Part shown: piece by piece, positions 24,456 through 56,699 of the stretch
Numbering within the stretch: position 1 is the first letter of the stretch
Layout: each line of letters begins with the position of its first letter
NCBI GenBank assembly: GCA_016779525.1
Contig: JADHNL010000001.1
Coordinates: forward strand, 13,109 to 77,108
DNA: 64,000 bases
DNA from: SAR86 cluster bacterium
GTDB lineage: Bacteria > Pseudomonadota > Gammaproteobacteria > Magnimaribacterales > TMED112
Reading direction: 5' to 3'
The notes under the pieces: generated by a model
The model's input: only the letters and a program-made list of their open reading frames with translations
The model's database searches: none
What the model was told of the DNA's origin: nothing
Made by a program: the position numbers and the translations under genes

Positions 24456-24456
24456 A

Positions 24457-26381: not shown

Positions 26382-26426
26382 GCATATATTTTGCACATCA
26401 AATAATTTATAATTCTCAGAAATTCA

Positions 26427-27410: not shown

Positions 27411-27429
27411 CTTTTTTAACAATTAACTT

Positions 27430-31635: not shown

Positions 31636-31637
31636 AT

Positions 31638-32312
31638 ATGAAAATCTTGACAATTATTCCAGCAAGAGGCGGTAGTAAAAGAATTGAGAAGAAAAATATA
31701 AAACCCTTTCTTGGAATGCCCATGATGGCTTGGCCAATAAAATCATTAAAAGACTCTAATATTGAAATGGATATTGTAGTGTCATCAGATGATAAAGAGA
31801 TCTTGCAAATTGCAGAAGAGCTTGGGGTAGAAGCAGTTAAAAGGGATGAAAAATTATCCGATGACTATACAACTTCAATGGAAGTAGTTAATGATTATGT
31901 AGAATCCATTGGAAATATCTATGATCTGATAATTAAGATATATCCGACAACGCCGTATTTAGATATTTCAGCATTAAAAAAAGGGATAGAGTTAATTACT
32001 GCAGAAAAAAATGCCTTCTCTCTTGCTAGTATTAAAGAATTTCCTCACCCTATCTCAAGGAAACTTATAAATGAAAATAAATTTGCAAGATTTAAAGACA
32101 AAAAATATGCAAAGCAAAGGACTCAAGATTGTGAAAAGTATTACTATGATGCAGCAAATTTTTATATTTTTAAAAAAAGATTCTTTGAAGAGAGTATGGA
32201 TATTTTTGATGGCTCCACTATTGGAGTTGAGGTTGATAAGATGTTATGTGTTGACATAGACAATACCGAAGATTGGAAATTGGCCGAAAGGCTTATAAAG
32301 TTTAGTGTATAA
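31638..32312 (+). CDS. pseF: Pseudaminic acid cytidylyltransferase (CMP-NeuAc synthetase family)
   Basis: 224-aa ORF with ILTIIPARGGSKRIEKKNIKPFLG and VVSSDD, lying directly after pseB-pseC. Confidence 0.78.
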   Translation: MKILTIIPARGGSKRIEKKNIKPFLGMPMMAWPIKSLKDSNIEMDIVVSSDDKEILQIAEELGVEAVKRDEKLSDDYTTSMEVVNDYVESIGNIYDLIIKIYPTTPYLDISALKKGIELITAEKNAFSLASIKEFPHPISRKLINENKFARFKDKKYAKQRTQDCEKYYYDAANFYIFKKRFFEESMDIFDGSTIGVEVDKMLCVDIDNTEDWKLAERLIKFSV

Positions 32313-32322
32313 TCACTAAGCT

Positions 32323-32396
32323 GGCTGAGTGGCAGAGTGGTTATGCAGCGGACTGCAACTCCGTTTACATCGGTTCGATTCCGTTCTCAGCCTCCA
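32323..32396 (+). tRNA. tRNA-Cys (anticodon GCA)
   Basis: 74 nt folded by hand. Acceptor GGCTGAG/CTCAGCC; anticodon stem GCGGA/TCCGT; loop CTGCAAC; T-loop TTCGATT; encoded CCA. One U-U mismatch in the T stem. The layout closely matches E. coli tRNA-Cys. Confidence 0.88.
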
Positions 32397-32477
32397 AATA
32401 CCTAAAGCGTAATTTTTTACAAGTTTAGAGTATTTAATTTTGAGTTAAATTAAAATAAATAACAAAATCTTTAATTT

Positions 32478-32564
32478 GCCCAGGTGGTGAAATTGGTAGA
32501 CACAAGGGACTTAAAATCCCTCGAAGGAAACTTCGTGCCGGTTCAAGTCCGGCCCTGGGCACCA
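32478..32564 (+). tRNA. tRNA-Leu (anticodon TAA)
   Basis: 87 nt. Acceptor GCCCAGG/CCTGGGC; anticodon stem AGGGA/TCCCT; loop CTTAAAA; long variable arm CGAAG-GAAA-CTTCG; T arm GCCGG-TTCAAGT-CCGGC; encoded CCA. Confidence 0.92.
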
Positions 32565-32565
32565 A

Positions 32566-34236
32566 TTAAAGGTTTATTAAATAATTAATCCACTCTCTAC
32601 GCCACTTTTTTGAAGTTAAAGCATATTTTTCATTGAAGTTTTTTCTTAAATTCTGAATTTTTTGGCTCTGCCACCATTCACTTATATTCCTATTGTTTAA
32701 AAAATTGATAAGTTCAATATGGTTGTCGTGCCATATTGAATGAGATTTAAGCTCTTCAAAAGTTTCTTCTGCATCTTTTTCCATGGGGTAAAGCTCTTTA
32801 TCCCAAAACAAAAATGTAGGCACATTTGCACTCATTGCTATATTTAATGTTGTACCTGGGTGATCTAAAATCAGACATTTACAACCTAAAAGTCTATCAT
32901 GAAAGTTTCCTTTTAATATTTTTAGATTATTGATATTTGATTGAAAAAATTCTAAAGCTGCTATTGCTCCATCTTTTTTTGGATGGGGCCTGTAAAAGAA
33001 TTCAATATCATAACTTTGCATCTCTTCCATAAGATTAAGCTGTTTATAAAGCAATCTATGCCATTCAAGTTGAGTTGGGCTTGGCGATAAGTACCTATTT
33101 ACATTATTCATTCTTGTAGTAGCAAGTAATACAGACTCACTATTTTGCTTATATTTATCCTTAAACTTTGTTAAGTATGGTGATGGGAGCCTATCAAAAA
33201 CTGCTTTATAGTTAGAGTGGTTTTGCCAGCCCCAAGTTATAAACCTAAATTGAGAAAATTCATTCTCATAAACCTCCTCACAGTGTCTTGCAAAACCATA
33301 ACTGCCACCACCATGTTGAAAGCCTACTAACTTATCCCCTCTAGATAATGCATTAGCTATTCTTAATCTGTATTTATCATCGACCCTCATTATGTGTGAA
33401 CCTAGTAAAAATTTTGATCTTTTAGCTTTTTTAAAAGTTGTTTTAGGTAATTTCTTTAAACTCTTAATGCTTTTAGGCATTGTCAGATAAAATAATTTTT
33501 CTATTGGTATGAAGTTCAAACCATGAATATCTAATTTCTTTTCGCTTAAAATTCTATCTTGCCTCTTTGATTCTGTTTTAAATGAATTAAAAAATAAAAT
33601 TGCTGAAGCTACCAGTTGCTCAAGAAGGCTAAAACCATATACCCTTTGTGCCCTCAAAAAACTCCTGCTAAGATCAATAAAAAATTCTTTAAAGGACTTT
33701 AGTTTTTTTGCTTTTTTATTAAAAAAAAACTTTTTTTTAGTTTCTCTAATTATAAATTCATTTGAGGTATTTCTAATAACTAGTGAAGTAAGCCATTCAT
33801 TAAAATCTACTGAATTTAAAGAGTCATGAATATCAACTGTTTCTAGAAAACCGATTTGATCTTCATTACAAATAATTTTTACAAAAACCTGCTTTGAATA
33901 GCTATGTTGAAATTTCTTTAGTTGCATATACTTTTCTAGATAGCTCTGAATAACTAGAATTAACCATGGGTACATAATTGTCTTGTAGAATATGTAATTT
34001 TGATTCAAATCAAATTCGTTATTAAACTTGTCAACATTTGTTTTAATAAAGTTTTTAACAAATAATGATGATCTTTTATCAAGCTCTTCAAAATCAATTT
34101 CTCTTCTTTCTATAAAAGAAAATATCTCATATTTGTTAAAATTTTTATCTCCGGCTGGTAAGGAGTATGTATTGAAAAGTACATGCTTTTTTGGATTAAA
34201 ATTTTTCGGCAAGGAGCCTATTATTAACTGCTTCAT
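32566..34236 (-). CDS. Large uncharacterised transferase-like protein (candidate nonulosonic/ulosonic-acid transferase)
   Basis: 556-aa ORF with no family I recognise confidently. The C-terminal half has GT-B-like features: GFQHGGGSYGF, FFYRPHPKKDG (an HP motif like bacterial sialyltransferases) and LILDHPGTTLNIAMSANVPTFLFW. Its stop codon lies 1 nt from the tRNA-Leu 3' end. Confidence 0.3.
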   Translation of the reverse strand: MKQLIIGSLPKNFNPKKHVLFNTYSLPAGDKNFNKYEIFSFIERREIDFEELDKRSSLFVKNFIKTNVDKFNNEFDLNQNYIFYKTIMYPWLILVIQSYLEKYMQLKKFQHSYSKQVFVKIICNEDQIGFLETVDIHDSLNSVDFNEWLTSLVIRNTSNEFIIRETKKKFFFNKKAKKLKSFKEFFIDLSRSFLRAQRVYGFSLLEQLVASAILFFNSFKTESKRQDRILSEKKLDIHGLNFIPIEKLFYLTMPKSIKSLKKLPKTTFKKAKRSKFLLGSHIMRVDDKYRLRIANALSRGDKLVGFQHGGGSYGFARHCEEVYENEFSQFRFITWGWQNHSNYKAVFDRLPSPYLTKFKDKYKQNSESVLLATTRMNNVNRYLSPSPTQLEWHRLLYKQLNLMEEMQSYDIEFFYRPHPKKDGAIAALEFFQSNINNLKILKGNFHDRLLGCKCLILDHPGTTLNIAMSANVPTFLFWDKELYPMEKDAEETFEELKSHSIWHDNHIELINFLNNRNISEWWQSQKIQNLRKNFNEKYALTSKKWRREWINYLINL

Positions 34237-34435: not shown

Positions 34436-35947
34436 GTGAAGAAAAGTAATTTTATACAAAGAATTAAGGATACATATAGTTGGAACTTTATTTCTAACAT
34501 TTTAAATTTTGGATCTTTAATCTTTGCTTCAAGTCTAATTTCTACAAATTCTGAGGTTTTTGCAGTTTACTCAGTTGTATTTTCTTTATTTTATCTTATT
34601 GGTTATTTTGATTTTGGCTTTACTTCTTCTGCAATAAAGTTTTACTCAGAATATTATCAAATTAATGAAGATAAAGGCTATCAAATTTTAGGTTTTATTT
34701 TTTTTATCTTTCTAGTGCTAGGAGTTCTATTTGCTACATTCTTTATCTTTTTAGGATCTTCAAACCTAATGAGTGCTTACTATGGTGGCGAGAGTTTAAA
34801 GATCTTTCAGTCATTAATTTCTGTTAGTGCTTTATTTGTATTCACAATCGCAATAAAAAAGTTAGGTGATGTTTTTTATACTTCAACAATTCAAACCTAT
34901 ATACAACAAAAGGCAATAGCTATAGGTTCTATCGTTAAAATTCTTTTATGCTTTTACTGTTTTATCTATAAAGATTACCTTATATACCAATACTTTCTAG
35001 GCTTTTTAACTATTGAATTGTTTGTTGCTCTTTACCTTTTCTACAGAATTGTAGATAGTCAGCTTAACTTCGCCTTAATTGCTAGAAATATAAAATTTAA
35101 CCGCAAAATATTTAAAGAACAGTACCAATTGGCTGCTGCAACAATTTTTGGTGCACTTGTCGCAATTATTTGCTATGAAAATGACGTTCTCATTGCTCAA
35201 TTAATTTTTGATGCTAGTCAGGTCTATTTAGTATCAGCTATATTCTTTCTTGCGCTCCCAATTAAAAGAGTCATCAATATTTTCTTTATGCCTTTATCTC
35301 CAAGATTAAATCATTTTTATGGTAAAAATAATAACCAGAGTGTTAATTCATTATTTTTGTCTTCTATAGATTTGCTTAAATTATTTGCACCATTCTTTTC
35401 CTGCTTGATGTTGGCAACGCCTGAAATAATTTTCTTAATTTATGGCAATAGTTATATTGATGCAGTTGGGCTTTTTAACACTGTAATTTTTGCATTTTTA
35501 CTTATTTTTTTTAAATTTCCTTTAATCTCATATTTCAGAACATACTTAAAAACAAAGACCTTGCTTTTTTCTGCAATTTTAGATTTATGTTGCTTTTTAT
35601 TATTCTTATATTTAACAAAAAACTCCCTTGGCCTATATTCAATTTTTTTGGCAAAAGTTTTTTCTGGAGTCATCACAATAATTTATTTAACTGTTTCAGC
35701 AAAACACTTCACTTCTAAAATTTTTAGCTTATTTGCAAAGAGCTTCATATTCTTCTTCATGCCGATATTATTTTTTCTGCTCTTATGCCTCATATTTATC
35801 AATGATTCTCTAATAAGCATATATTTCAAGCCATCATTAATTAAAACATTATTTTTGATAATATCTTTTGCGCTTGCCCTAGTTATAGCTTACAACCAAA
35901 GGAATTTAGTAAAAAAAATTCTTATCCTATATAATTCCCAAGATTGA
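34436..35947 (+). CDS. Wzx-like polysaccharide flippase (MOP superfamily), copy 1
   Basis: 503-aa ORF with a GTG start. It is extremely hydrophobic, with about 12 or more predicted TM segments, and has the size and context typical of O-unit flippases. Confidence 0.5.
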   Translation: MKKSNFIQRIKDTYSWNFISNILNFGSLIFASSLISTNSEVFAVYSVVFSLFYLIGYFDFGFTSSAIKFYSEYYQINEDKGYQILGFIFFIFLVLGVLFATFFIFLGSSNLMSAYYGGESLKIFQSLISVSALFVFTIAIKKLGDVFYTSTIQTYIQQKAIAIGSIVKILLCFYCFIYKDYLIYQYFLGFLTIELFVALYLFYRIVDSQLNFALIARNIKFNRKIFKEQYQLAAATIFGALVAIICYENDVLIAQLIFDASQVYLVSAIFFLALPIKRVINIFFMPLSPRLNHFYGKNNNQSVNSLFLSSIDLLKLFAPFFSCLMLATPEIIFLIYGNSYIDAVGLFNTVIFAFLLIFFKFPLISYFRTYLKTKTLLFSAILDLCCFLLFLYLTKNSLGLYSIFLAKVFSGVITIIYLTVSAKHFTSKIFSLFAKSFIFFFMPILFFLLLCLIFINDSLISIYFKPSLIKTLFLIISFALALVIAYNQRNLVKKILILYNSQD

Positions 35948-36903
35948 TGAACTTTTTAGTTACAGGTAGTGCCGGATTTATAGGATTTCATCTTAGTAAA
36001 AAGCTGCTAGAAGAAAACCATAATATTGTAGGTTTAGACAACCTAAATAATTATTATGATCCTAAATTAAAACACCAAAGAATCAGCTTGCTGTCAGATT
36101 TTAAAAACTTCGACTTTATCGAAAGTGATTTAAGTCTTATTGGCCAAGTTTCTGGGAAAAAAAAATTTGATGCTGTGATTCATTTAGCTGCACAAGCTGG
36201 AGTTAGAATTGCAAGAAAAAAATATGAAGATTATTTTCAATCTAATATTGATGGATTCAATAAAGCAATCAATTTTTGTATAGATAACGATATAAATAAA
36301 TTCATATATGCTTCCAGTAGCTCAGTATATAGCGGAGAGGAAAGCACCCCCTTTTTAGAGGCAAACAAATTATCTGCCCCAACCTCAATATACGCAGCAA
36401 CAAAAATGTGCAATGAAAATATCGCAAATATTTACTCAAATTTATATGGCCTTAGATCCATTGGACTCAGATTTTTCACTGTGTATGGTCCATTTGGACG
36501 ACCAGATATGGCCTATTTTAAGTTTTTAAAAAATATACTCGACGGCAAGACAGTTGATTTAATTAATTACGGTGAGATGTCTAGAGATATGACCTATATT
36601 GATGATATTGTAAATGGAATTTTTAATGCTATTCAGCATATAAATAGCTTGAATAGCTCAGAATCTCAAATCTTTAATCTTGGTAATGATAAGCCTATAA
36701 AAACAATTTATCTCTTAAACTATCTAGAAAAAATTGCTAATAAAAAAGCAAAAATAAATGAAATATTCACAAAAAATGAAGCTAAACACACACATGCCAA
36801 TATCACTAAAGCAAAAAATAGATTGAATTATTTACCACAAGTAGATTTTGAGAAAGGAATAGAAAAATTTTTTCAATGGTATTTGGAATTTTATAAATTA
36901 TGA
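35947..36903 (+). CDS. NAD-dependent nucleotide-sugar epimerase, UDP-glucuronate 4-epimerase-like
   Basis: FLVTGSAGFIGFHLSKKLLEENHNIVGLDNLNNYYDPKLK, HLAAQAGVR, YAATKMCNE (YxxxK) and RFFTVYGPFGRPDMA form a pattern typical of the Cap1J/LpsL-type UDP-GlcA 4-epimerases. A ugd gene is present in the same locus. Confidence 0.65.
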   Translation: MNFLVTGSAGFIGFHLSKKLLEENHNIVGLDNLNNYYDPKLKHQRISLLSDFKNFDFIESDLSLIGQVSGKKKFDAVIHLAAQAGVRIARKKYEDYFQSNIDGFNKAINFCIDNDINKFIYASSSSVYSGEESTPFLEANKLSAPTSIYAATKMCNENIANIYSNLYGLRSIGLRFFTVYGPFGRPDMAYFKFLKNILDGKTVDLINYGEMSRDMTYIDDIVNGIFNAIQHINSLNSSESQIFNLGNDKPIKTIYLLNYLEKIANKKAKINEIFTKNEAKHTHANITKAKNRLNYLPQVDFEKGIEKFFQWYLEFYKL

Positions 36904-37532
36904 ATGGATTTGATTTAAAAAATTATCATATTTTTTTTTGGGACTTTGATGGTGTTATAAAAAGATCTAATCAGATAAAAGTTGATGCGTTTAAACAACT
37001 TTTCAAAGATTCTGATTGTGTAGATAAAATTATAGAACATCATATACAGAACCAAGGTATCTCAAGATATGAAAAAATACCTCTTTACCTAATGATTTCA
37101 GGTAGGGATACGTCTAAACCAAATGTAGCTAAGTATATTCAGGAATTTTCAGATATTGTCGTAGATAAGGTTGTTCATTCAGACTGGATTCCCGGGGTGC
37201 TCCAATTTTTAGAAAAAACATCAGCAAAAGTAAATATCATCGTAACAGGAACACCTCAAAATGAAATTGAAATGATTCTTCAGCAGCTTAAACTTGATAA
37301 ACAATTCGATTATATTTATGGGGCTCCTCACAATAAAACAGACTCTATAAAAAATATAATTAGCAGCAATGATATTTGTATAAAAAAAATGATAATGATT
37401 GGCGATTCTATGGAAGATTTCAATGCCGCAGTTAAGAATCAAATTGATTTTATGTTAATTGAAAATGAATACAATTCCTTTATTGATAGAAAGAAATGTA
37501 TGATTTGTGCGAGCGATTTCCTTGATTTATGA
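36900..37532 (+). CDS. HAD-superfamily hydrolase/phosphatase
   Basis: 210-aa ORF with motif I FFWDFDGVIKRS and motif IV MIGDSMEDFNAA. Confidence 0.65.
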   Translation: MNGFDLKNYHIFFWDFDGVIKRSNQIKVDAFKQLFKDSDCVDKIIEHHIQNQGISRYEKIPLYLMISGRDTSKPNVAKYIQEFSDIVVDKVVHSDWIPGVLQFLEKTSAKVNIIVTGTPQNEIEMILQQLKLDKQFDYIYGAPHNKTDSIKNIISSNDICIKKMIMIGDSMEDFNAAVKNQIDFMLIENEYNSFIDRKKCMICASDFLDL

Positions 37533-38146
37533 ATTTATCTCTTGAGGAAGCATCTTGTTCTTACCAAGAATTATTTAACTTAGTTGCTAGTGGAAGTCCA
37601 AAGAGAGTTTTATTGGCAGGAGGGAAAACACCCATTGAATTCTACCGTAAATATTTATTTAAGTTAAATGCAAACTTTGCTCTTACAGATGAGAGGATAA
37701 CTCCTGAGTTAAAAAGAAAAAATTATGAGTCATTAAGACCAATATTCCCTAGTTTGATAAATGTGAATTTTCCAAGTAAAGAAAAAGAAATCGCTGGAGG
37801 TATAGGTGAAATTAATGAACAGTATGAACGCTTCTTTCCTCCAGATATTTGTATTTTAGGAATGGGAGAAGATGGGCACTATGCATCAATTTTCCCAAAA
37901 ATGAAAATAATTTTTCAGGATGTTAATGACTTATTCATTTTTTCAAAACTCCCAAATGGCGAGTTAAGATTCTCTGTTACTAAAAAATATATCTGTATGT
38001 CAAAAAAAGTTTACTTGTTAATTGGTAAAGATAACGCAATGAAAAGAAAGCTTCTAGGAGAAAGCAGAACCAAGGAGTTCTTTAGTTTACCTATTTCCGA
38101 AATTTTATATGAATTTAGTGAAAAAATTAGCATAATTTATATCTAA
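37529..38146 (+). CDS. 6-phosphogluconolactonase / glucosamine-6-P deaminase (NagB/Pgl/RpiA-like) family protein
   Basis: 205-aa ORF with LLAGGKTPIEFYRKY, ALTDERITP and ILGMGEDGHYASIFP, the signature of Pgl/DevB-type enzymes. Confidence 0.65.
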   Translation: MNLSLEEASCSYQELFNLVASGSPKRVLLAGGKTPIEFYRKYLFKLNANFALTDERITPELKRKNYESLRPIFPSLINVNFPSKEKEIAGGIGEINEQYERFFPPDICILGMGEDGHYASIFPKMKIIFQDVNDLFIFSKLPNGELRFSVTKKYICMSKKVYLLIGKDNAMKRKLLGESRTKEFFSLPISEILYEFSEKISIIYI

Positions 38147-38949
38147 TGACTATTACAGCACTTGTAAAAAATTTTTTTGAAATGTGGAAGTTATTCCTCA
38201 GTCTTTTGGTAGGTGTTAATTTAGTTTGTATATTTTTACTTTTGTCAATTAAAGAAGAATTTAAATCTGAAAGCTATCTAGTTGAAAGCAAGCTGTCTCA
38301 AAATTCAAGTGGAGCAGGCTTAGGCGGCTTAGGAATATTGGCTAATTCACAAGATTCATATGACGCAGCTTTAGCAATTGAATACATGAAATCCAGAGAA
38401 TTCTTGTACTCATTTATAGAAAAATTTTCTCTACATGAGCATTACTTTCCAAGAAAACAGCTAGATGATATCTTGCTTGAGGAAACTTTTTTGCTTTTGA
38501 AAAATAAAGTTTCACTAAGTTCAGTTTCAGACTTTAGCAAAGTATATAAAATTAGTCTTAGATCATATAGTCCAGCATTTTCATCTGAGATGACTGAAAA
38601 TCTAATAGTAGAATTAAATTCACAGCTGGCTAAGAAAGAGTATTTAAAATCCAATGAAACTGCTGACTTTTTATTGCAGGAACTAGAAAAGACTAATGAT
38701 TCTGCATTAAGTAATAGCTTATTTCAATTGCTTAATGAGGAAGTAAGGCGAAAAACTCTGGCTCAAACTAATGAGAAAGAGTTTATATTCAGAGTTGCCG
38801 CTAAGCCATACCCTGAATTAAAAAGAGCATATCCTCCGTCTAGAATGATTGTGCTAATTTTAATCAATATTATTTTTACTATCCTATTTCTATTCAGCAT
38901 AGTTTTTTGGAAAACTACGAACGAAATTTTTAAAAAAGCAGCCCAATAA
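38146..38949 (+). CDS. Polysaccharide co-polymerase (Wzz/KpsE-like chain-length or export protein), short form
   Basis: 267-aa ORF. It has an N-terminal TM (LFLSLLVGVNLVCIFLLLSI), a predicted helical periplasmic region with YLVESKLSQ...GLGGLGILANSQDSYDAALAIEYMKSREFL, and a C-terminal TM after a P-rich turn (YPPSRMIVLILINIIFTILFLF). Confidence 0.45.
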   Translation: MTITALVKNFFEMWKLFLSLLVGVNLVCIFLLLSIKEEFKSESYLVESKLSQNSSGAGLGGLGILANSQDSYDAALAIEYMKSREFLYSFIEKFSLHEHYFPRKQLDDILLEETFLLLKNKVSLSSVSDFSKVYKISLRSYSPAFSSEMTENLIVELNSQLAKKEYLKSNETADFLLQELEKTNDSALSNSLFQLLNEEVRRKTLAQTNEKEFIFRVAAKPYPELKRAYPPSRMIVLILINIIFTILFLFSIVFWKTTNEIFKKAAQ

Positions 38950-38950
38950 G

Positions 38951-39685
38951 ATGAAAAAAAACCGTTTCAATAATGCTAATGTAGGATTTTTCTTAACAAT
39001 ACCAGATGAAATTGTTTGTGAAATATTTTGTAATTTATCCTATGATTTTTGTGTAATTGATTTAGAGCATTCAGTAATTGATCTAAAAAAATGCCAAAAT
39101 TTTATAAGAATTTGCAACTTAAAAGGAATCGAATGCTTGGTGAGACTAAGTTGTGATAGTGATGTTGAAATAAAAAAAGTATTAGACATGGGAGCTGATG
39201 GAATTATTGTTCCAATGGTAAAATCTCTGAGCCAAGCAAATGAAATAGTAAAAAATGTCTTCTATCCCCCAAAAGGGAGAAGGGGTATGGGTTTAGCAAG
39301 AGCTCAGATGTATGGAGAAAACTTTGAAAAAAATCTGAAAAAAAGTAGAAAAATAAAATTAATAGTTCAGTTTGAACATATTGATGTCCTTAATTGTTAT
39401 GAAGATATTTTATCTATCGAGGAAGTAAGTGGCTTCATGATAGGTCCATATGATTTTACTGCTTCAATGGGTTTGGCGGGAGAATTTGAGAATCCAATAT
39501 TCCTGAAACATATTAAAGATATAGAAGAAGCGAATAAAAAATTTAAAAAAATACAAGGTTTCCACTTAATTGAACCTGATAAAGAAAAATTTAGACAACT
39601 GTTGAGCAAAAATTATGATTTCATTGTCTACAGTCTAGACACTAAACATTTGCAAATATCTGGAGCAAGCATTTTCGATGAGTGA
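38951..39685 (+). CDS. HpcH/HpaI-family class II (pyruvate) aldolase
   Basis: 244-aa ORF with VIDLEHSVIDL, GADGIIVPMVKSLSQANEIV and YPPKGRRGMG, which match the HpcH/GarL/YfaU aldolase signature (D.EH ... PMV ... YPP.G.RG). Confidence 0.7.
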   Translation: MKKNRFNNANVGFFLTIPDEIVCEIFCNLSYDFCVIDLEHSVIDLKKCQNFIRICNLKGIECLVRLSCDSDVEIKKVLDMGADGIIVPMVKSLSQANEIVKNVFYPPKGRRGMGLARAQMYGENFEKNLKKSRKIKLIVQFEHIDVLNCYEDILSIEEVSGFMIGPYDFTASMGLAGEFENPIFLKHIKDIEEANKKFKKIQGFHLIEPDKEKFRQLLSKNYDFIVYSLDTKHLQISGASIFDE

Positions 39686-40412
39686 ATCTATTTGTTTGAT
39701 TCCTGCACGCATGAATTCCTCAAGGTTTCCAGGGAAACCACTTGAAAAAATTAATGGTATTGAAATGATTAAAATTTGTTATCAAAATGCAGAATCTGCA
39801 GATTGTTTCGATCATATTTATATCGCTACACCTGATAAAGAAATTATGGAATTCTGCAAACTCAATAGCATGCATTCAATCATGACCTCTGATAAGCATG
39901 AAAGATGTACTAGTAGAACTTTAGAGGCAGTACTGAAGCTTAATAAATTAAATAAAAGAATTTCAAAAATTGTAATGCTTCAAGGCGATGAACCTTTAAT
40001 CAGTTCTAATATGTTAAAACAATCACTGGAATCATTACAATCTTCAAAAATTACAAATCTAGTAACAAGAATTCGTGATACAAAAGAGATAGATGATGTT
40101 AACGAAGTAAAAGTAGTTTTGTCTGCAAATGGTAACGCAATATATTTCTCAAGATCAAGAATCCCCGCAACCAAAGATGATATTGATTATGATATTTATA
40201 AACAGGTTTGTGCTATAGCCTTTGATCTAGAGTCGTTAAAACTGTTTGAAAATTTACCAGAGAGCACACTAGAAAGAATAGAATCAATTGATATGAATAG
40301 ATTGATTGAGAATGAAATACAGATAAAAGCTGTAATTGTTAATGGTCAAATTGCTAGTGTAGATACACCAAGTGACTTAATGAAAGTAGAAAATTTAATT
40401 TCTAATGGATAA
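39678..40412 (+). CDS. KdsB-family cytidylyltransferase (CMP-ulosonic acid synthetase-like)
   Basis: 244-aa ORF with ICLIPARMNSSRFPGKPLEKINGIEMI, LQGDEPLI, AIYFSRSRIP, IESIDMNRLIEN and VDTPSDLMKV, which parallel E. coli KdsB motifs. Confidence 0.7.
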   Translation: MSESICLIPARMNSSRFPGKPLEKINGIEMIKICYQNAESADCFDHIYIATPDKEIMEFCKLNSMHSIMTSDKHERCTSRTLEAVLKLNKLNKRISKIVMLQGDEPLISSNMLKQSLESLQSSKITNLVTRIRDTKEIDDVNEVKVVLSANGNAIYFSRSRIPATKDDIDYDIYKQVCAIAFDLESLKLFENLPESTLERIESIDMNRLIENEIQIKAVIVNGQIASVDTPSDLMKVENLISNG

Positions 40413-41343
40413 TTGTTTTCTAGTTACAGGCTGCGGCGGTTTTATTGCTTCAAAACTGATTAAAGAACTAAAGAATGATGATCCAAATCAACGAATCATA
40501 GGCATTGATAACTTCACTACAGGTTATCAAGATAATATTCCTGATGATATATTTTTCTACAAAGGTGATTGTGCCGACAGGGATTTACTAAACATTATTT
40601 TTGGCAAACATAAAATCTCAAAGATCTTTCACTTTGCTGCACAAAGTTCAGGTGAGATAAGTTTTGATAACCCAGAATACGATTTAAAGACTAATACTTT
40701 GTCAACATTATATCTGCTTGATAAATCTGTTGAATATGAAGTTGATCAGTTTATATTTGCTAGCACTATGTCTGTTTATGGTGACGCTAATGAAAAAGCA
40801 AGTGAAGTCCATAAGTGTAATCCAAAATCTTTCTATGGTGTTGGTAAGTTGGCTAGTGAAAACTATCTATCGATCTATAAGAGGCAGTTCAATCTTAACT
40901 GTATTTCTTTAAGATTATTTAATGTATATGGCCCAGGACAAAACCTTAAGAATCTTAGACAAGGAATGGTAAGTATTTATTTAGCACAATTGATGAAATC
41001 TAAAGATATTGAAGTGCATGGATCTTTAAAACGATTTAGAGATTTAATTTATATCGATGATGTGACAAGAATTATTCTAAATTTAACTAAATGGAGGAGC
41101 TTTGATTTTGATGTATTAAATATTGGAACTGGTTTAAAAACAAGCGTGGAAAACATAATTCTTGGGATATGTAATGCCTTAGAAGTTAGCTATAAAGATA
41201 TAAAAATAACACATCCCAAAGAAACACTTGGCGATATCAATGGCATATATGCCAATAATGAAAGATTACTAGAATCAATACCAATGGATTTTATCAAATT
41301 TGATCAAGGTATATTAAAGATGGTGGATAGTGTAAATGATTAA
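40405..41343 (+). CDS. NAD-dependent epimerase/dehydratase (extended SDR)
   Basis: 312-aa ORF with FLVTGCGGFIASKLIKEL, HFAAQSS, YGVGKLASE (YxxxK) and RLFNVYGPGQ. Confidence 0.7.
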   Translation: MDNCFLVTGCGGFIASKLIKELKNDDPNQRIIGIDNFTTGYQDNIPDDIFFYKGDCADRDLLNIIFGKHKISKIFHFAAQSSGEISFDNPEYDLKTNTLSTLYLLDKSVEYEVDQFIFASTMSVYGDANEKASEVHKCNPKSFYGVGKLASENYLSIYKRQFNLNCISLRLFNVYGPGQNLKNLRQGMVSIYLAQLMKSKDIEVHGSLKRFRDLIYIDDVTRIILNLTKWRSFDFDVLNIGTGLKTSVENIILGICNALEVSYKDIKITHPKETLGDINGIYANNERLLESIPMDFIKFDQGILKMVDSVND

Positions 41344-41762
41344 TAATAAAAAAGTTATTACAGTTATACCAGCAAGATTGGGCTCTTACAGGTTCCCAAC
41401 AAAACCAATTGAAAAGATTGCAGGAATACCAATGTTAGAGAGGGTTTTTAATGGAGCTAAAGGTTGTTACAGATAAAGATGGATATGCACTATATTTTTC
41501 TAGAAACCCTATTCCAGCAGAATGGTTTGGCGATAAAGAATTTAAATATAAGTTAGAAATCTGTGTTATGCCTTTTCATGCTTGGGCAATAGAAAAATTT
41601 ATGTAATTAGATGAAGGCATTCTTGAGGATATTGAATCAGTTGACATGTTAAGGCTTTTAGAAAATAACGTGAAAGTAAAGATGGTTAAATCTCCAATTA
41701 ATATGCAGAGCGTTGATGTTCCTGAAGATATTCTTAAAGTTGAATCAATTCTAAAAAAATGA
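41336..41762 (+). pseudogene. Decayed second KdsB-family cytidylyltransferase gene (frameshift, internal deletion, in-frame stop)
   Basis: No ORF of 60 aa or more lies here. Frame 1 from ATG 41336 reads MINNKKVITVIPARLGSYRFPTKPIEKIAGIPMLERVFNGAKGCYR* (stop 41474-41476). A second frame from about 41466 reads VTDKDGYALYFSRNPIPAEWFGDKEFKYKLEICVMPFHAWAIEKFM*, with TAA at 41604-41606. It continues LDEGILEDIESVDMLRLLENNVKVKMVKSPINMQSVDVPEDILKVESILKK* (TGA 41760-41762). Both ends match KdsB motifs, but the central third including the QGDEP region is absent. Confidence 0.8.
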
Positions 41763-43084
41763 AAGTCAGAAGTAATGGTTCATCGGTTAATTTACTTCTA
41801 TACTTTTTTTTGTTCATAGCTTTTGTGGCTCCTAGAGGTTTTGGGATCAATGTTCTCGGATCTGTAATTGATATTACCGAGGTTACATTTATTGGAGCTT
41901 TTGCACTTATCTTAAGTAGAATCTCTATAAGTAAAACATCAGAGCAATTATTCTTAACAACTTTAGTTCTCATCCCTATTATTGGTGTTTTGCTAAATAG
42001 TTTCGAAACTCTTTTACCAATATCGCGATTTGTATTTTATTTTTTTTTAGTCATTAGTGGGTATCTAATAGGTAGATTTTTATTTTCGAATACGTTAGGA
42101 GAAAATAATTTCTACTTAATTGTGCAGACTATAATTTTCTTTAATTTGTTTATGCTTCTGGTTGGGTTAATTAATCACTTCTTTAACATAGTCAACTTTG
42201 ACCAATTCAGAGCTTATGATGAAAGTAATCTTGTAAATCTTGGAAGTCTCCAACGAATGATAGATGGGTATTTAGGTTTTTATGCATTTCGTGGCAATCA
42301 GCTTGCTTCAAATGAGTTTGCAATTTTACAATCTTCATTATTTGCAATGTCACTTTCATACTACTATCTAAATTTTAAATATTTAACTAAACAGGCAATT
42401 CCCCTACTGATATTGTCAATAATTGTTTCTTTTGCATGTATTATTCTTTCACAAAGCAGAGGAGTAATAGTTATTGCAGTTATTCTCCTTTTATCTTTCC
42501 ACTTTTATGGGATTAGAAAGAAGATTGGCATTTCAAGACAACCATTAAACTTTTTAGCTGCCTTGATAGCATTCTTTTCAATTTATTTTTACGATCAGCT
42601 TTTATTTGTGCTGACTAACATCACAACAATTTTAAATTACGTAGGCTTGGAGGGAATTAATGGTGCAGTTGTAAATTCATTTGAAACTTCTAAAAGAATT
42701 ATAGCTTTAAGAAGCTTTGCTGACATTGTAATTGAATATCCATATTTTTTGATTTATGGATTTGGAGAGGGTTTTTGGAACTACCACCCATTAGATAAAA
42801 TAACAATTTTTTCAGATTCTGGATTTTTTATAACTTACTTGATGGAATTTGGACTGATTTCATCAATCATTTTCATAGCTTACTCCTATAAGATACTTTT
42901 GAATGTAATTAAACTAAAAAAAGTAGCTTTGACAGTTTTTTTCTTTTCTTTTGCTGTTCTGCTAATTTGCATGCAAATTACTTCTTTTAAAACAAACCAA
43001 TGGTATTTATACTTCTTCTTAGGCATTTGTTCATTTCTAAGCAGTTATTATGAAAGTAGGTATAACCACAATTCCATTCCATGA
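41759..43084 (+). CDS. Wzy-like O-antigen/capsule polymerase (O-antigen ligase-like domain)
   Basis: 441-aa polytopic membrane ORF. The region LSQSRGVIVIAVILLL followed by a large loop resembles the Wzy_C/O-antigen ligase domain. The context fits a polymerase. Confidence 0.5.
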   Translation: MKVRSNGSSVNLLLYFFLFIAFVAPRGFGINVLGSVIDITEVTFIGAFALILSRISISKTSEQLFLTTLVLIPIIGVLLNSFETLLPISRFVFYFFLVISGYLIGRFLFSNTLGENNFYLIVQTIIFFNLFMLLVGLINHFFNIVNFDQFRAYDESNLVNLGSLQRMIDGYLGFYAFRGNQLASNEFAILQSSLFAMSLSYYYLNFKYLTKQAIPLLILSIIVSFACIILSQSRGVIVIAVILLLSFHFYGIRKKIGISRQPLNFLAALIAFFSIYFYDQLLFVLTNITTILNYVGLEGINGAVVNSFETSKRIIALRSFADIVIEYPYFLIYGFGEGFWNYHPLDKITIFSDSGFFITYLMEFGLISSIIFIAYSYKILLNVIKLKKVALTVFFFSFAVLLICMQITSFKTNQWYLYFFLGICSFLSSYYESRYNHNSIP

Positions 43085-43970
43085 AGACAACATTAAGTTA
43101 TTAGAAAGTTATGGATTTAAGGTTAAATTAAATCCATTCAATCAGAAAATTCAACGCCATCAAATTTATGATTTTTTGAATGACTGTGATGCAGTTATCG
43201 CTGGAACTGAAATTTATGATGAAGATATTTTACATAAATTAAAGAATCTTAAAGCCATATCACGCGTGGGGGTGGGGACTGATAATGTCAATCATTCTGC
43301 AGCAGAAAAACTAAATATTAAAATATTTAACACTCCTTCTGCACCATCAAAAGCTGTAGCAGAGTATTGTTTGGGCTTGATAATTTACTTCTTAAGAGAT
43401 GTACACTTTTCAAACTTGAGGCTTAAAAGAAAAGTTTGGAGTAGAGAGCTTTCCTTATCTTTAGAAGATGCAAAAATATGTATTGTTGGTGGAGGAAGGA
43501 TTGCAAAAAAACTTGTAAAAATGCTTATTGCTTGTGGGGCAAAAAATATAATTGTGATAGATACAATTGACTTATCTAAAGATGCTGATTGGAAACATGA
43601 AGCAATTAGATTTGGGGATAAAACACAACTTTCTAATGCAGATATAATTTCATTCCATGTCCCTTTAACAACTAACACTAAAAACTATCTAAATTTTGAG
43701 GTATTTAAGGGGTTCAAAAAAAAGCCGTACATCATTAACACCAGTAGAGGTGAAATTATAAATGAAGAAGACTTAAAATTTGCTTTAGAAAAAGATCTTA
43801 TAAGAGGAGGAGCATTAGATGTTTTCAAAGAGGAGCCATATAATGGGAATTTAACAGAATACCACCAATTAATTACCACTCCTCATATAGCATCAACCTC
43901 TAAATCATCTAGAATGTTTATGGAGAAACAGAGTTGTAAAAATTTAATTGAATATGCAGAAAAAAAATAA
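43050..43970 (+). CDS. D-isomer-specific 2-hydroxyacid dehydrogenase family protein
   Basis: 306-aa ORF with VGGGRIAKKLVKML (NAD site), SFHVPLTTNTKNYLN, INTSRGEIINEEDL, GGALDVFKEEP and TPHIAS. Confidence 0.75.
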   Translation: MKVGITTIPFHEDNIKLLESYGFKVKLNPFNQKIQRHQIYDFLNDCDAVIAGTEIYDEDILHKLKNLKAISRVGVGTDNVNHSAAEKLNIKIFNTPSAPSKAVAEYCLGLIIYFLRDVHFSNLRLKRKVWSRELSLSLEDAKICIVGGGRIAKKLVKMLIACGAKNIIVIDTIDLSKDADWKHEAIRFGDKTQLSNADIISFHVPLTTNTKNYLNFEVFKGFKKKPYIINTSRGEIINEEDLKFALEKDLIRGGALDVFKEEPYNGNLTEYHQLITTPHIASTSKSSRMFMEKQSCKNLIEYAEKK

Positions 43971-44838
43971 GAATAAAATATTAATTTTTGGTGGCAATGG
44001 ATTTATAGGTAGTGCAGTTGCTAACAAACTACTATCTCAAGGGTATAGTGTTTCAGTTGCTGATGTACATGAAAAACCAAGTAATAAGAATATCGAATAC
44101 TTTAATATTGATATCACTGACTCTAAGAGCTTTTCCAATAAGCTTGATAAAGATTTTGATATTATTTTTAACTTTGCTGCGGTAGCTGATATTGGGGAAT
44201 CAAGTAAATTTTTTGATAAAACAATATCAACCAACATTCTAGGAAATATAAATATTCTTAATTTTTCAAAAGAAATAAATATTGAAAGATTTGTATATGC
44301 ATCAAGCATGTATGTTTTTGGTGATAAAGGTGGGGTATATGGTGCATCTAAAAAAGTTTCTGAGATTCTTGTTCAGCAATATGCTGAAAGATTTGGTTTT
44401 TCTTTCACACATTTAAGGTATGGATCATTGTATGGCCCTGGAGCACAAGACTGGAATAGTATAAAAAGATATGTGAAATCTATTAATAAAGAAAAGCAAA
44501 TAAAACATTGGGGTACAGGTGAAGAAGTTAGAGAATATATTCATGTAGATGATGCTGCAAAATTAACTTTAAAAGCTGTTGAGAAGAAATATGAAAATAC
44601 TGCACTTTCTATAACAGGACATCAAAAATATACCTCAAAGGAATTAATATCTATGATCTTTGAGATGATGAATATAAAACCAAAAATCACATTTGAAAAT
44701 AAAATTTCTAATGAACATTATAAGTTTTCACCATATAGCCACACACCTCTTCTTGGCAATAAACTAATTTCAGAAGAATATATAGATTTTGGTCAAGGCC
44801 TTCAACAAGAAATTCTGAAGATCATTGAGGAAGAGTGA
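43954..44838 (+). CDS. NAD-dependent epimerase/dehydratase (SDR)
   Basis: ILIFGGNGFIGSAVANKLL, YGASKKVSE (YxxxK), LRYGSLYGPG. The track starts at TTG 43948; ATG 43954 is the likelier start. Confidence 0.7.
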   Translation: MQKKNKNKILIFGGNGFIGSAVANKLLSQGYSVSVADVHEKPSNKNIEYFNIDITDSKSFSNKLDKDFDIIFNFAAVADIGESSKFFDKTISTNILGNINILNFSKEINIERFVYASSMYVFGDKGGVYGASKKVSEILVQQYAERFGFSFTHLRYGSLYGPGAQDWNSIKRYVKSINKEKQIKHWGTGEEVREYIHVDDAAKLTLKAVEKKYENTALSITGHQKYTSKELISMIFEMMNIKPKITFENKISNEHYKFSPYSHTPLLGNKLISEEYIDFGQGLQQEILKIIEEE

Positions 44839-46322
44839 AAGATTCTGATTCTATAATTGATTTTAACAAACTCCTAGACATGTTACTCAAGCAAAATAAA
44901 GGCTTGAGAGAATGGTTCTTTTTGCCTACATTTCATAAGAACACGAACACATCTACACTTTTTAAACCTTTCCTAGAGAAATACAAGCATATAGACAATG
45001 AGAGATATTGCTCGAAGCAATTTAATTTTAAATTTTTTTCATCTGTAAAATACATTGGAAAAATTATTTTTTTCTATATCGGAATGTCATTGTTTTTTCT
45101 TGCAGTAAAGTTATTGCCTAGAAACAAAATGAAAGGTGGAAACAAAGTTTATTTTGAGGTTTTTGAAGATGGAGGAAATATGCCAATTGGTTATCATAAT
45201 TACCCTGCATTAATTAATCAGGATAGAGTTAGCCTCAAGCCAAAAATTTCGTTTTTAGTTAACTTGTTAAATATTTTTTCCCTAAGACAAATTTTAAATA
45301 TTAGATTAAAAACGAAGAAAACTAAATTTCACATTCTTTTCCCTGAGAGAGAAATGAAATTTTCCGATATTTTTGAATTTCACTGCAACATTAATTTATT
45401 AAAATCAAATTTACCAAGCAAACTAATATTCAACGATCTTAACTTTAAAGATTTAATAACAAATTCTTTAAATAAGAATATGGTATCAAGAAGTGCATTT
45501 TTTGGCTTCTTGAGAAAAAAATATTTCGATAAGCACAAAAAATATTTTTCTGAAACTAAGCTTCTCCTATGGAATGAGAATCATGTTTATGACAGAGCAT
45601 GCTGTATTGCAATGAACTCTGAAATAAGCAATGTCTATGGAATGCAAAGCTTTGCTCCAAGTTATTTTAAAAACTGTGATACTCCTTCAGATATAGATGT
45701 AGAAAATTCTTTATGCCCAAAGAAAATTTATAGAGTATTTAATACCAAACAATCAAACAAAATTATTTACAAAAAAATGCCTGCATTTAGGCTTAAAGAA
45801 TATTTTTCCTCAGAAAGAAAATTTAAAAAAGAAAATTTTGTCTTCTTTGCATTGCCACTACTTAACCCAGATGATGAAAGATATACTGATTTAGCATTAT
45901 TGGCTAAAGATCTAAAAGAAGCAGGTTTCAATATATCTGTGAAATTTCATCCCCTTCAAGATGAGTCACACAAAAAATTATTTCTTAGTTTTACCAATGA
46001 AATTAATATTGTTTCCTCCCTCACTACTCACTTAAAGCACGCAAAAATTGTAATCAGTACTGGGCTTTCGACGGTATATTATGAAAGCTTTTTTTTTGGT
46101 ACAGTGTCAGTGAATTTTTCCAATCCTTCTTTCAAGATAGATGTTGATTTACCTGAAGGTGCTTTTTTTCAAACCACGAGCTTTAAAACTATATTGAGCA
46201 TAATAGATAAGAAAAGAGATATACATGAAAAAACAATTGAAGAATATTTATCGCAATTCATTAACCCCTCAGATGAGAATATAAAAGATTTTCTTAATGA
46301 AGTGGTAAATAGCGGCCAGTAA
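44835..46322 (+). CDS. Uncharacterised membrane-anchored transferase-like protein
   Basis: 495-aa ORF with a GTG start overlapping the upstream stop. It has one N-terminal TM (IGKIIFFYIGMSLFFLAV). The C-terminal region FVFFALPLLNPDD...SVKFHPLQDESHKK...VISTGLSTVYYESFFFG resembles the C-terminal Rossmann half of GT-B, capsule or teichoic-type transferases. There is no confident family call. Confidence 0.3.
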   Translation: MKDSDSIIDFNKLLDMLLKQNKGLREWFFLPTFHKNTNTSTLFKPFLEKYKHIDNERYCSKQFNFKFFSSVKYIGKIIFFYIGMSLFFLAVKLLPRNKMKGGNKVYFEVFEDGGNMPIGYHNYPALINQDRVSLKPKISFLVNLLNIFSLRQILNIRLKTKKTKFHILFPEREMKFSDIFEFHCNINLLKSNLPSKLIFNDLNFKDLITNSLNKNMVSRSAFFGFLRKKYFDKHKKYFSETKLLLWNENHVYDRACCIAMNSEISNVYGMQSFAPSYFKNCDTPSDIDVENSLCPKKIYRVFNTKQSNKIIYKKMPAFRLKEYFSSERKFKKENFVFFALPLLNPDDERYTDLALLAKDLKEAGFNISVKFHPLQDESHKKLFLSFTNEINIVSSLTTHLKHAKIVISTGLSTVYYESFFFGTVSVNFSNPSFKIDVDLPEGAFFQTTSFKTILSIIDKKRDIHEKTIEEYLSQFINPSDENIKDFLNEVVNSGQ

Positions 46323-56696: not shown

Positions 56697-56699
56697 AGC

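Follow-up and report, generated by a model that had tools for sequence, protein, structure and literature searches.

To our knowledge, the characterised cytidine monophosphate (CMP)-activated 2-ulosonic acids, that is, 3-deoxy-D-manno-oct-2-ulosonate (Kdo), N-acetylneuraminic acid (Neu5Ac), 3-deoxy-D-glycero-D-galacto-non-2-ulosonic acid (Kdn), pseudaminic acid (Pse), legionaminic acid (Leg) and their relatives, are all made by phosphoenolpyruvate (PEP)-dependent synthases of the KdsA or NeuB type. In the Kdo pathway (KdsD, KdsA, KdsC, KdsB), an aldose phosphate and a C3 unit give an ulosonate phosphate that is dephosphorylated and then activated with CMP; the nonulosonic acid pathways (NeuB, PseI or LegI with NeuA, PseF or LegF; Kdn-9-phosphate synthase with its phosphatase) also lead to a CMP-2-ulosonic acid, which is used for surface glycans or flagellin. 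Here we analyse a 64,000-nucleotide stretch of the metagenome-assembled genome of a SAR86 cluster bacterium (GenBank assembly GCA_016779525.1, contig JADHNL010000001.1, positions 13,109 to 77,108 of the forward strand; hereafter the window, in whose own coordinates all positions are given), in which a gene for an HpcH/HpaI-family aldolase (38951-39685) is followed by a gene for a KdsB-like cytidylyltransferase (39678-40412) inside a surface-glycan locus. Together with recurrent partner genes, this pair forms a cassette that, on balance, we take to serve the synthesis of a CMP-activated 2-ulosonic acid, probably other than Kdo, by means of an aldolase and without a PEP-dependent synthase. A route of this kind, built around a pyruvate aldolase and ending in a 3-deoxy-ulosonic acid, had been put forward in an earlier reading of the same DNA made without database searches (the sequence-only reading).

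As proposed here, the cassette shares with the Kdo pathway the sequence of condensation, dephosphorylation and activation, and its activating enzyme comes from the same CTP_transf_3 family, in the KdsB branch. Unlike that pathway, it has an HpcH class II aldolase in place of the PEP-dependent KdsA, a capped HAD_2 protein instead of KdsC, a cytidylyltransferase without H181 and Y185, and two extra conserved dehydrogenases; moreover, it sits in glycan loci, including those of organisms without lipopolysaccharide. The nonulosonic acid pathways are approached by those cassettes that carry a PseF-like cytidylyltransferase or lie beside Maf-type (MptE-like) genes, but the condensing enzyme of the cassette is not of the NeuB family and the core lacks genes for hexosamine precursors derived from UDP-sugars. 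Full-text literature searches returned no paper that joins an HpcH-family aldolase with a cytidylyltransferase or with ulosonic acid biosynthesis, and none that describes the cassette; one apparent match (PMC12994016) proved to be unrelated.

Co-conservation of the aldolase and the cytidylyltransferase

In the window, the two genes are translationally coupled: the last 8 nucleotides of the aldolase gene are also the first of the cytidylyltransferase gene (...GATGAGTGA, with ATG AGT GAA), in agreement with the sequence-only reading. The pair is also recurrent, as that reading required. An alignment of the aldolase subfamily was scanned against one genome per species, which yielded 80 loci, and metagenome contexts were added; after open reading frame (ORF) calling, matching to the window proteins and BLAST clustering, 83 non-redundant loci remained, in which partners were counted within 7 kb on the same strand. 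A CTP_transf_3 cytidylyltransferase is encoded in 72 of these 83 loci, and many of the misses are on truncated contigs. The lineages represented are SAR86, Coxiellaceae, Nitrosomonas and Nitrosospira, Leptospira alexanderi, Desulfovibrionales, Campylobacterales, Bacteroidota, Planctomycetota, Acidobacteriota, Chlorobium, Actinobacteria, phyla of the Candidate Phyla Radiation (CPR) and the archaeal Methanoregula. In the reverse direction, with the KdsB-like subfamily as the seed, metagenomes yielded 80 loci, 43 of them testable (at least 900 nucleotides on both sides), and the aldolase was found within 3 kb, usually directly upstream, in 40 of the 43.

The two activities are also joined in a natural fusion protein (P0132), with a cytidylyltransferase domain of the PseF/NeuA-like type at residues 5-183 and an HpcH domain at residues 245-468. 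The cassette can stand alone: on a repABC plasmid of Acuticoccus sp. I52.16.1, a cultured marine alphaproteobacterium (NZ_CP094833.1, record 40686-45138, locus L170), a five-gene operon encodes the aldolase, a PseF-like cytidylyltransferase, a 2-hydroxyacid dehydrogenase resembling phosphoglycerate dehydrogenase (PGDH), a HAD-family protein and a short-chain dehydrogenase/reductase (SDR); a gene for a small Dabb-family protein follows it. As controls, distant HpcH aldolases (about 31% identity) encoded on Haloterrigena and Nitratireductor plasmids were inspected; they lie amid genes for sugar and tricarboxylate transporters and dihydroxyacetone kinase, and neither has a cytidylyltransferase nearby.

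The absence of a PEP-dependent synthase at this position, another point of the sequence-only reading, was borne out as well: no KdsA- or NeuB-type synthase is encoded between 34436 and 50833. The nearest NeuB-type enzyme is PseI (27430-28479), about 10 kb upstream in a Pse module of its own, which ends about 5 kb before the aldolase module; PseI belongs to that module and is separate from the cassette. Elsewhere, NeuB occurs in only 8 of the 83 aldolase loci, and the compact cassettes have no synthase of the NeuB/KdsA family.

The aldolase

With 86.7 bits against PF03328 (HpcH_HpaI; cutoff 25), the aldolase is a member of this family, and its closest PDB entries are HpaI, YfaU and GarL (70-92 bits). 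It stays well below the NCBIfam equivalog cutoffs, scoring 125.8 against 368.8 for HpaI, 96.9 against 406.75 for GarL and 91.3 against 441 for RhmA. Residues E39, H40, R65, E142 and D168 are invariant among 26 subfamily members; in the alignment to HpaI (7ET8, with 4B5S offsets), H40, R65, E142 and D168 correspond to H45, R70, E149 and D175, which we take to be the catalytic histidine and arginine and the glutamate and aspartate metal ligands. The family assignment made in the sequence-only reading is confirmed. With the catabolic HpaI/HpcH, GarL and RhmA/YfaU enzymes, the aldolase has in common its fold, its catalytic and metal-binding residues and a predicted chemistry on 4-hydroxy-2-oxoacids, but the window protein reaches only about a third of the equivalog cutoffs, is encoded in a biosynthetic, not catabolic, context (a glycan locus with a cytidylyltransferase, glycosyltransferases and Wzx/Wzy) and has subfamily-specific invariant residues, namely S41, GPYD (instead of GPAD or GPSD), H205 and S228. 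Judged by its sequence, it is a true HpcH/HpaI-fold protein of a glycan-cluster subfamily and not an HpaI, GarL or RhmA equivalog. An exhaustive HMMER search of 1.84 billion representative sequences puts the subfamily at 131 clusters (50% identity) at E<=1e-30.

Some proteins of the subfamily (P0137, P0176, P0147, P0197 and P0221; 513-1019 amino acids) consist of two or three HpcH domains in tandem. A PEP mutase and, with it, a phosphonate pathway were considered and rejected, since the window protein matches HpcH_HpaI and not PEP_mutase and keeps the aldolase residues.

The KdsB-like cytidylyltransferase

Among the NCBIfam models, the cytidylyltransferase passes NF003952 (235 bits, cutoff 193) and fails TIGR00466 (141.6 against 155.2) and NF003948 (161 against 281); its identity to the KdsB and KpsU structures is about 33-35%. 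It retains the motifs for nucleotide and metal (the N-terminal Arg/Lys, QGDEP and the C-terminal VDTP), whereas the sugar pocket is altered. For Escherichia coli KdsB, modelling published in 2025 and based on 3K8D has Q98 and Y185 form hydrogen bonds with the C5-OH of Kdo and puts H181 in the active site (PMC12199768). The window enzyme has KQVCAIAF where the E. coli enzyme has KHVGIYAY and ESIDMNR where the latter has ESLEQLR; Q98 is kept, H181 is replaced by Gln and Y185 by Ile. We compared 77 aldolase-linked cytidylyltransferases, 57 of which are KdsB-like: Gln occupies the H181 position in 54 and Ile the Y185 position in 48, and in the stretch that corresponds to LEQLR, Asp is counted in 73 and Met in 55. 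In the KdsB-like set, KHVGIYAY becomes KQVCIIPF and LEQLR becomes (V/I)DM(L/M/N)R. The pocket also follows the make-up of the cassette, which comes in two types described below: type A has KQVCIIPF and type B has KQLG(I/V)I(A/S)F, as would be expected if the two variants make different sugars.

The same signature occurs in the Methanoregula and Moraniibacteria loci; neither Methanoregula nor CPR bacteria such as Moraniibacteria are known to make lipid A. As a separate subfamily with an altered pocket that extends to archaea and CPR bacteria, the enzyme is most likely a specialised one and not the housekeeping Kdo activator, an identity that the sequence-only reading had named as fatal to its proposal.

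In about 13 loci, mostly from Bacteroidota, the aldolase is paired with a distant PseF/NeuA-like cytidylyltransferase. All characterised members of the CMP-ulosonate synthetase family that we know of activate 2-ulosonic acids. Because the aldolase partners two clades of this family, KdsB-like and PseF-like, its product is probably a 2-ulosonic acid, and this double pairing is the strongest indirect argument for such a product.

In the closest syntenic SAR86 locus (L001-L003), a second KdsB-like gene (10372-11121), whose product is 39% identical to that of the window, follows a homologue of the SDR gene at 40405-41343; the window has no second KdsB-like gene, and a 415-nucleotide gap (41344-41758) is found instead.

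Setting and gene content of the locus

The first 24 kb of the window contain housekeeping genes (pntAB, gyrA, serC, tyrA, aroA, cmk, rpsA, pyrF, pgi, uvrC, infC, pheST, metK, ahcY). From about 24 kb onwards extends a long surface-glycan locus with nearly all genes on a single strand, in which a pseudaminic acid module, genes for tRNA-Cys and tRNA-Leu and a minus-strand LIC12162-like gene precede the aldolase module. The G+C content falls from 0.33-0.38 over positions 1-24000 to 0.27-0.32 over 24000-64000, a drop that is typical of horizontally exchanged surface-polysaccharide islands. The genes of the aldolase module and its immediate neighbours are the following.

34436-35947, + strand: polytopic membrane protein in the position of a Wzx flippase (about 12-15 hydrophobic segments; no Pfam match)
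36900-37532, + strand: HAD phosphatase of the capped HAD_2 type (Pfam HAD_2, 60.7 bits)
37529-38146, + strand: divergent Pgl/NagB-fold protein (Pfam Glucosamine_iso, 61.9 bits; TIGR01198 pgl, 49 bits against a cutoff of 124)
38146-38949, + strand: chain-length protein resembling polysaccharide co-polymerases (PCP/Wzz-like; transmembrane segments at residues 17-35 and 235-253; TIGR01010 KpsE/BexC, 19 bits only)
38951-39685, + strand: HpcH/HpaI-family class II metal-dependent 2-oxoacid aldolase (PF03328, 86.7 bits)
39678-40412, + strand: KdsB-like CMP-ulosonate synthetase (CTP_transf_3; Pfam, 145 bits)
40405-41343, + strand: GalE/TviC-like extended SDR (Pfam Epimerase, 166 bits)
41759-43084, + strand: Wzy-like polymerase (at least 9 transmembrane segments; Wzy_C, 26 bits, under the cutoff of 31.7)
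43050-43970, + strand: PGDH-like D-2-hydroxyacid dehydrogenase (2-Hacid_dh and 2-Hacid_dh_C; 126 bits for 2-Hacid_dh_C)
43948-44838, + strand: GalE-like extended SDR of about 290 amino acids (Pfam Epimerase, 152 bits)
44835-46322, + strand: divergent protein of the TIGR04326 (LIC13510) family, 495 amino acids, candidate transferase (hhalign)

ORF calling and Pfam and NCBIfam scans recovered every ORF listed in the sequence-only reading on the plus strand, at its coordinates and with its domains, with three refinements. The last SDR is present, but could start at TTG 43948 as well as at the ATG 43954 that alone had been given. The product of 38146-38949, previously called a PCP protein, has the fitting topology, with N- and C-terminal transmembrane segments, but no Pfam match and only the weak KpsE/BexC score; likewise, the membrane segments of the proposed Wzy polymerase agree with that role although its Wzy_C score is below threshold. 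Homologues of both genes are syntenic in locus L001, and Polysacc_synt flippases occupy the position equivalent to 34436-35947 in other loci. The region 34436-46322 is part of a Wzx/Wzy-type surface-polysaccharide locus, and the PCP/Wzz-like protein belongs to its assembly machinery, outside the sugar pathway.

Cassette partners and two variants of the cassette

Apart from the cytidylyltransferase, the most frequent partners in the 83 aldolase loci are the PGDH-like 2-hydroxyacid dehydrogenase (56 loci), the 43948-type extended SDR (47) and the 36900-type HAD (34), whereas the Pgl-like protein is found in 11. Of the enzymes that the sequence-only reading had grouped around the pair, the HAD, the dehydrogenase and the 43948-type SDR are thus conserved; the Pgl-like protein and the 40405-type SDR are accessory. 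The closest PDB entries to the dehydrogenase are the short PGDH 1WWK (142 bits) and then McyI; those to the 43948-type SDR, which nearly always adjoins the 2-hydroxyacid dehydrogenase, are the UDP-hexose 4-epimerases 4ZRM and 3AW9. In several loci, the gene that comes directly after the KdsB-like one encodes a homologue of the 40405-type SDR (40-62% identity), an enzyme that may contribute to a different sugar in the repeat unit. The Pgl/NagB-fold protein is possibly a lactonase or a sugar-phosphate isomerase.

The cassettes fall into two variants. Type A, found in the window, in SAR86 more generally, in nitrifiers and in many other organisms, consists of the aldolase, the cytidylyltransferase, the PGDH-like dehydrogenase, the GalE-like SDR and the HAD; optional extras are methyltransferases, a TIGR04326 protein and a hydrolase that is either Pgl-like or of the cyclase fold (PF04199). 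Type B, seen in Coxiellaceae, in Leptospira and in other organisms, combines the aldolase and the cytidylyltransferase with an IolG-like GFO oxidoreductase, a FabG-like SDR, an AroB-related TIGR04425 'sugar phosphate phospholyase' (506 bits), a PGDH-like dehydrogenase and a GmhA-like SIS_2 isomerase. In Fisher tests among the 83 loci, which were not corrected for phylogeny, the HAD (34 loci) and the AroB-related enzyme (9 loci) share no locus (p = 0.009). The HAD is associated with the extended SDR (32 of 34 loci, p = 4e-9) and the 2-hydroxyacid dehydrogenase (33 of 34, p = 6e-7), and the AroB-related enzyme with the GFO (7 of 9, p = 1e-4) and the short SDR (8 of 9, p = 3e-6). Mutual exclusivity of the Pgl-like and the cyclase-fold hydrolases is not significant in the same set (p = 0.20).

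The AroB-related proteins, which belong to type B elsewhere and are not encoded in the window, are nearest to true dehydroquinate synthases (DHQS) and retain the motif K...R-x-x-x-N-Y-G-H-[ST]-F-G-H-A...H-G-x-A, whose R-x-x-x-N-Y-G-H-[ST]-F-G-H-A region we take to be the DHQS active-site motif. The natural substrate of DHQS, 3-deoxy-D-arabino-heptulosonate 7-phosphate (DAHP), is a 3-deoxy-2-ulosonate omega-phosphate. In contrast to AroB, the TIGR04425 enzyme is encoded together with the aldolase and the cytidylyltransferase in glycan cassettes, where it replaces the HAD phosphatase. Because the HAD and the AroB-related enzyme appear to be alternative, mutually exclusive removers of phosphate, a phosphorylated intermediate is likely; this would fit a route in which, as in the Kdo and Kdn pathways, the condensation takes place on a sugar phosphate, here by aldol addition, and the product is dephosphorylated afterwards. 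A capped HAD that is not KdsC has a recent precedent in this role, as the plant enzyme AtGPP2 is a specific Kdo-8-phosphate phosphatase. We propose that the HAD encoded at 36900-37532 dephosphorylates an ulosonate phosphate or its precursor.

A candidate transferase

Direct scans of Pfam, NCBIfam and the PDB gave no match to the 495-amino acid product of 44835-46322. Compared by hhalign with 12 cassette-linked TIGR04326 (LIC13510) proteins, it aligns over 435 columns with a probability of 99.4% (E 1.3e-21), so that by profile comparison it is best described as a divergent member of this family of 'surface carbohydrate biosynthesis proteins'. The link emerged only with hhalign: jackhmmer against the locus ORFs recovered SAR86 orthologues only, and homologue searches that started from the sequence alone or from a profile of 14 sequences, in which the candidates were saturated by low-complexity words, recovered only the protein itself. 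A single-sequence AlphaFold2 model was unusable (pLDDT 34.7). In the joint alignment, E248 (ENQxWE), R319 and H372-P373 (K-P-H-P) are invariant in the family. The invariant K-x-H-P recalls the KpsC, KpsS and WbbB beta-Kdo transferases and the HP-motif sialyltransferases; beta-Kdo transferases and CMP-sialic acid-dependent transferases share an HP motif (PMC10148158). The best PDB match of the TIGR04326-family profile is indeed KpsC, over the K-x-H-P motif, but with a non-significant E value of 0.1, and we treat this resemblance as a lead only. The protein is probably a dedicated CMP-sugar-dependent transferase.

Seven aldolase loci (L081, L074 and five more) hold MptE-like/Maf-type genes (PF01973). 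Enzymes of this family attach nonulosonic acids to flagellin, and so the product of the cassette may, in some lineages, decorate flagellin rather than a polysaccharide.

Proposed pathway and alternatives

The pathway that we propose builds on observed properties of the genes: the families of the enzymes and their catalytic residues, the co-conservation of the pair, its occurrence as a fusion and the changes in the sugar pocket. In the first step, the HpcH-family aldolase would add the enolate of a 2-oxoacid, in the simplest case pyruvate, to a phosphorylated aldose to form the 2-oxo-acid skeleton. The phosphate would then be removed, through hydrolysis by the HAD in type A or through elimination by the AroB-related phospholyase in type B, as their mutual exclusivity suggests. 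The PGDH-like dehydrogenase and the GalE-like SDR would tailor the skeleton or supply the precursor, and the cytidylyltransferase, which is KdsB-like by family, would convert the predicted ulosonic acid to the CMP-sugar. Finally, the TIGR04326-like protein could transfer the sugar onto the repeat unit. We infer the aldol direction, the donor and the acceptor, the order of the steps and the function of the transferase from gene content and conserved residues; in particular, operation in the synthetic direction, with pyruvate and not hydroxypyruvate as donor, would give a 3-deoxy product. Kdo itself is improbable as the sugar. The sequence data do not point to any one of Kdo, Kdn, 3-deoxy-D-arabino-heptulosonic acid (DAH), 2-keto-3-deoxygluconate (KDG), 2-ketogluconate, ulosaric acids resembling 3-deoxy-D-lyxo-heptulosarate (Dha) and 3-hydroxy acids resembling D-glycero-D-talo-oct-2-ulosonic acid (Ko). 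For comparison, the activated form of Dha is still unknown (PMC3355719).

Several observations weigh against this pathway. Its chief weakness is that the PGDH-like dehydrogenase, the most conserved third partner, is not explained by a scheme of aldolase, phosphatase and activation. A 2-keto-aldonate could also arise from the action of nothing more than a 2-hydroxyacid dehydrogenase, a lactonase-like Pgl and a sugar dehydrogenase, with no C-C bond formed. The characterised close relatives of the aldolase are all catabolic. For a separate kdsA and kdsB, the view is confined to the 64-kb window, which contains no kds or lpx genes. Furthermore, the co-occurrence counts derive from fragments of metagenome-assembled genomes, many of them truncated contigs, and are uncorrected for phylogenetic relatedness.

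The dehydrogenase is central to the alternative that fares best, in which the product would be a 3-hydroxy and not a 3-deoxy ulosonic acid and would arise either by oxidation, with the aldolase as an editor, or from hydroxypyruvate as the aldol donor. In the oxidative form, an aldose phosphate would be converted to a lactone by the SDR or GFO, then to an aldonate phosphate by the Pgl or cyclase-fold hydrolase and to a 2-keto-aldonate phosphate by the PGDH-like enzyme; removal of the phosphate and activation with CMP would follow, and the part of the HpcH enzyme would be confined to resetting stereochemistry through retro-aldol and aldol steps. In the hydroxypyruvate form, the dehydrogenase and the HAD would make the hydroxypyruvate donor from 3-phosphoglycerate. 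Such schemes are consistent with the proximity of the 2-hydroxyacid dehydrogenase to phosphoglycerate dehydrogenases, with the parallel make-up of types A and B, each of which brings together an oxidoreductase, a hydrolase, a 2-hydroxyacid dehydrogenase and an enzyme that removes phosphate, with the presence of the hydroxypyruvate-using HpcH aldolase SwHKA (6R62) among the PDB neighbours, and with the Pgl homologues, some of which are full-scoring 6-phosphogluconolactonases (for example, 165 bits in L080). However, these homologues are confined to 11 of the 83 loci, and their exclusivity with the cyclase-fold hydrolases, which the oxidative form would use interchangeably, is not significant. 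The tightest pair, coupled and sometimes fused, is that of the aldolase and the cytidylyltransferase, and in 21 loci with this pair no 2-hydroxyacid dehydrogenase was detected. Moreover, we know of no precedent for an HpcH enzyme that is used purely as an epimerase. On this evidence, we regard an oxidative or hydroxypyruvate-based route as unlikely, but to be kept in view alongside aldol addition of pyruvate.

A further alternative is that only the synthase step is unusual, and that the aldolase route leads to an ulosonic acid already known, be it Kdo, Kdn, DAH or another, which would go into a capsule or O-antigen. Formally, the phosphates of Kdo, DAH and Kdn equal pyruvate plus arabinose 5-phosphate, erythrose 4-phosphate and mannose 6-phosphate, respectively; the window cytidylyltransferase passes one KdsB subfamily model (NF003952), that of L010 passes PRK13368 too, and SIS_2 isomerases are encoded in 11 of the 83 loci. 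Against a known sugar stand the replacement of H181 and of the C5-OH contact Y185 in nearly all members of the subfamily, the co-variation of the sugar pocket with cassette type and the extra conserved dehydrogenases, which take no part in the synthesis of Kdo or of Kdn. Taken together, this makes a known sugar improbable. A fortuitous neighbourhood of a lipid A Kdo activator and a catabolic 2-keto-3-deoxy-acid aldolase, which the generic annotations ('2,4-dihydroxyhept-2-ene-1,7-dioic acid aldolase'; KdsB subfamily model) might suggest, is effectively excluded, being contradicted by the reciprocal co-conservation over dozens of lineages and the fusion protein, the same KdsB-like signature of the pair in Methanoregula and CPR bacteria, the altered sugar pocket, the lack of a cytidylyltransferase beside the catabolic relatives and the embedding of the genes in glycan loci.

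Other features of the window

The Pse module (23883-32312) is complete, with PseI (418 bits), PseB (494 bits), PseC (490 bits) and a PseF-like cytidylyltransferase (197 bits). It also encodes a GNAT protein, a HAD, an enzyme resembling ATP-grasp L-amino acid ligases and a GAPDH-like protein, which suggests a further modified, for example amino-acylated, derivative of Pse. Between the two sugar modules, the sole minus-strand gene (32566-34236) encodes a protein resembling LIC12162-family transferases (185.6 bits against a cutoff of 225), which may be a Pse or ulosonate transferase. It directly adjoins the genes for tRNA-Cys and tRNA-Leu (32323-32564), which may mark a junction between exchanged modules.

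Further downstream, the region 55303-58708 contains a HAD-like gene, a UbiA prenyltransferase gene (55839-56696), a homologue of DprE1 (56700-58001) that scores 204 bits against the mycobacterial enzyme, and a 236-amino acid ORF in the position of DprE2. This looks like a pathway from polyprenyl-phospho-ribose to arabinofuranose, that is, to a lipid-linked donor of the decaprenyl-phospho-arabinose (DPA) type, in a gammaproteobacterial (SAR86) glycan locus. An unusual 256-amino acid protein (21641-22411) combines an N-terminal cytidylyltransferase-like domain (PF01467) with a C-terminal cupin of the mannose-6-phosphate isomerase type and has no NCBIfam match at E<=1e-25.

Implications

The evidence is evenly balanced on the broader proposition that the cassettes embody a PEP-independent aldolase logic for a whole family of CMP-ulosonic acids, possibly ulosaric or omega-deoxy ones, in many bacterial phyla and some archaea. 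This family would have two variants of phosphate removal, hydrolytic by the HAD and eliminative by the AroB-related enzyme, its own clade of cytidylyltransferases, its own transferases of the TIGR04326/LIC12162 type, and products whose structure or biosynthesis is so far unassigned. The NCBIfam/TIGRFAM models for the pieces of the type B neighbourhood (TIGR04425, TIGR04326 and TIGR04331) bear placeholder names only.

The compact operons of cultured carriers, for example those of Nitrosospira sp. Nsp11 (L033, 9163-13245), of Leptospira alexanderi and of the Acuticoccus plasmid, offer an entry for experiments. If the proposed route is correct, it would represent a new biosynthetic logic for acidic surface sugars, in which a class II 2-oxoacid aldolase replaces the PEP-dependent synthase, and the aldolases and cytidylyltransferases would be of use in the chemoenzymatic synthesis of keto-sugar nucleotides. 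It would also explain hundreds of genes that are mis-annotated as 'HpcH aldolase' or 'KdsB' in the O-antigen, capsule and flagellin-glycosylation loci of organisms such as SAR86, which is abundant in the sea, nitrifiers and Leptospira; it would point to undiscovered sugars, and the origin of rare ulosonic and ulosaric acids would become directly testable.

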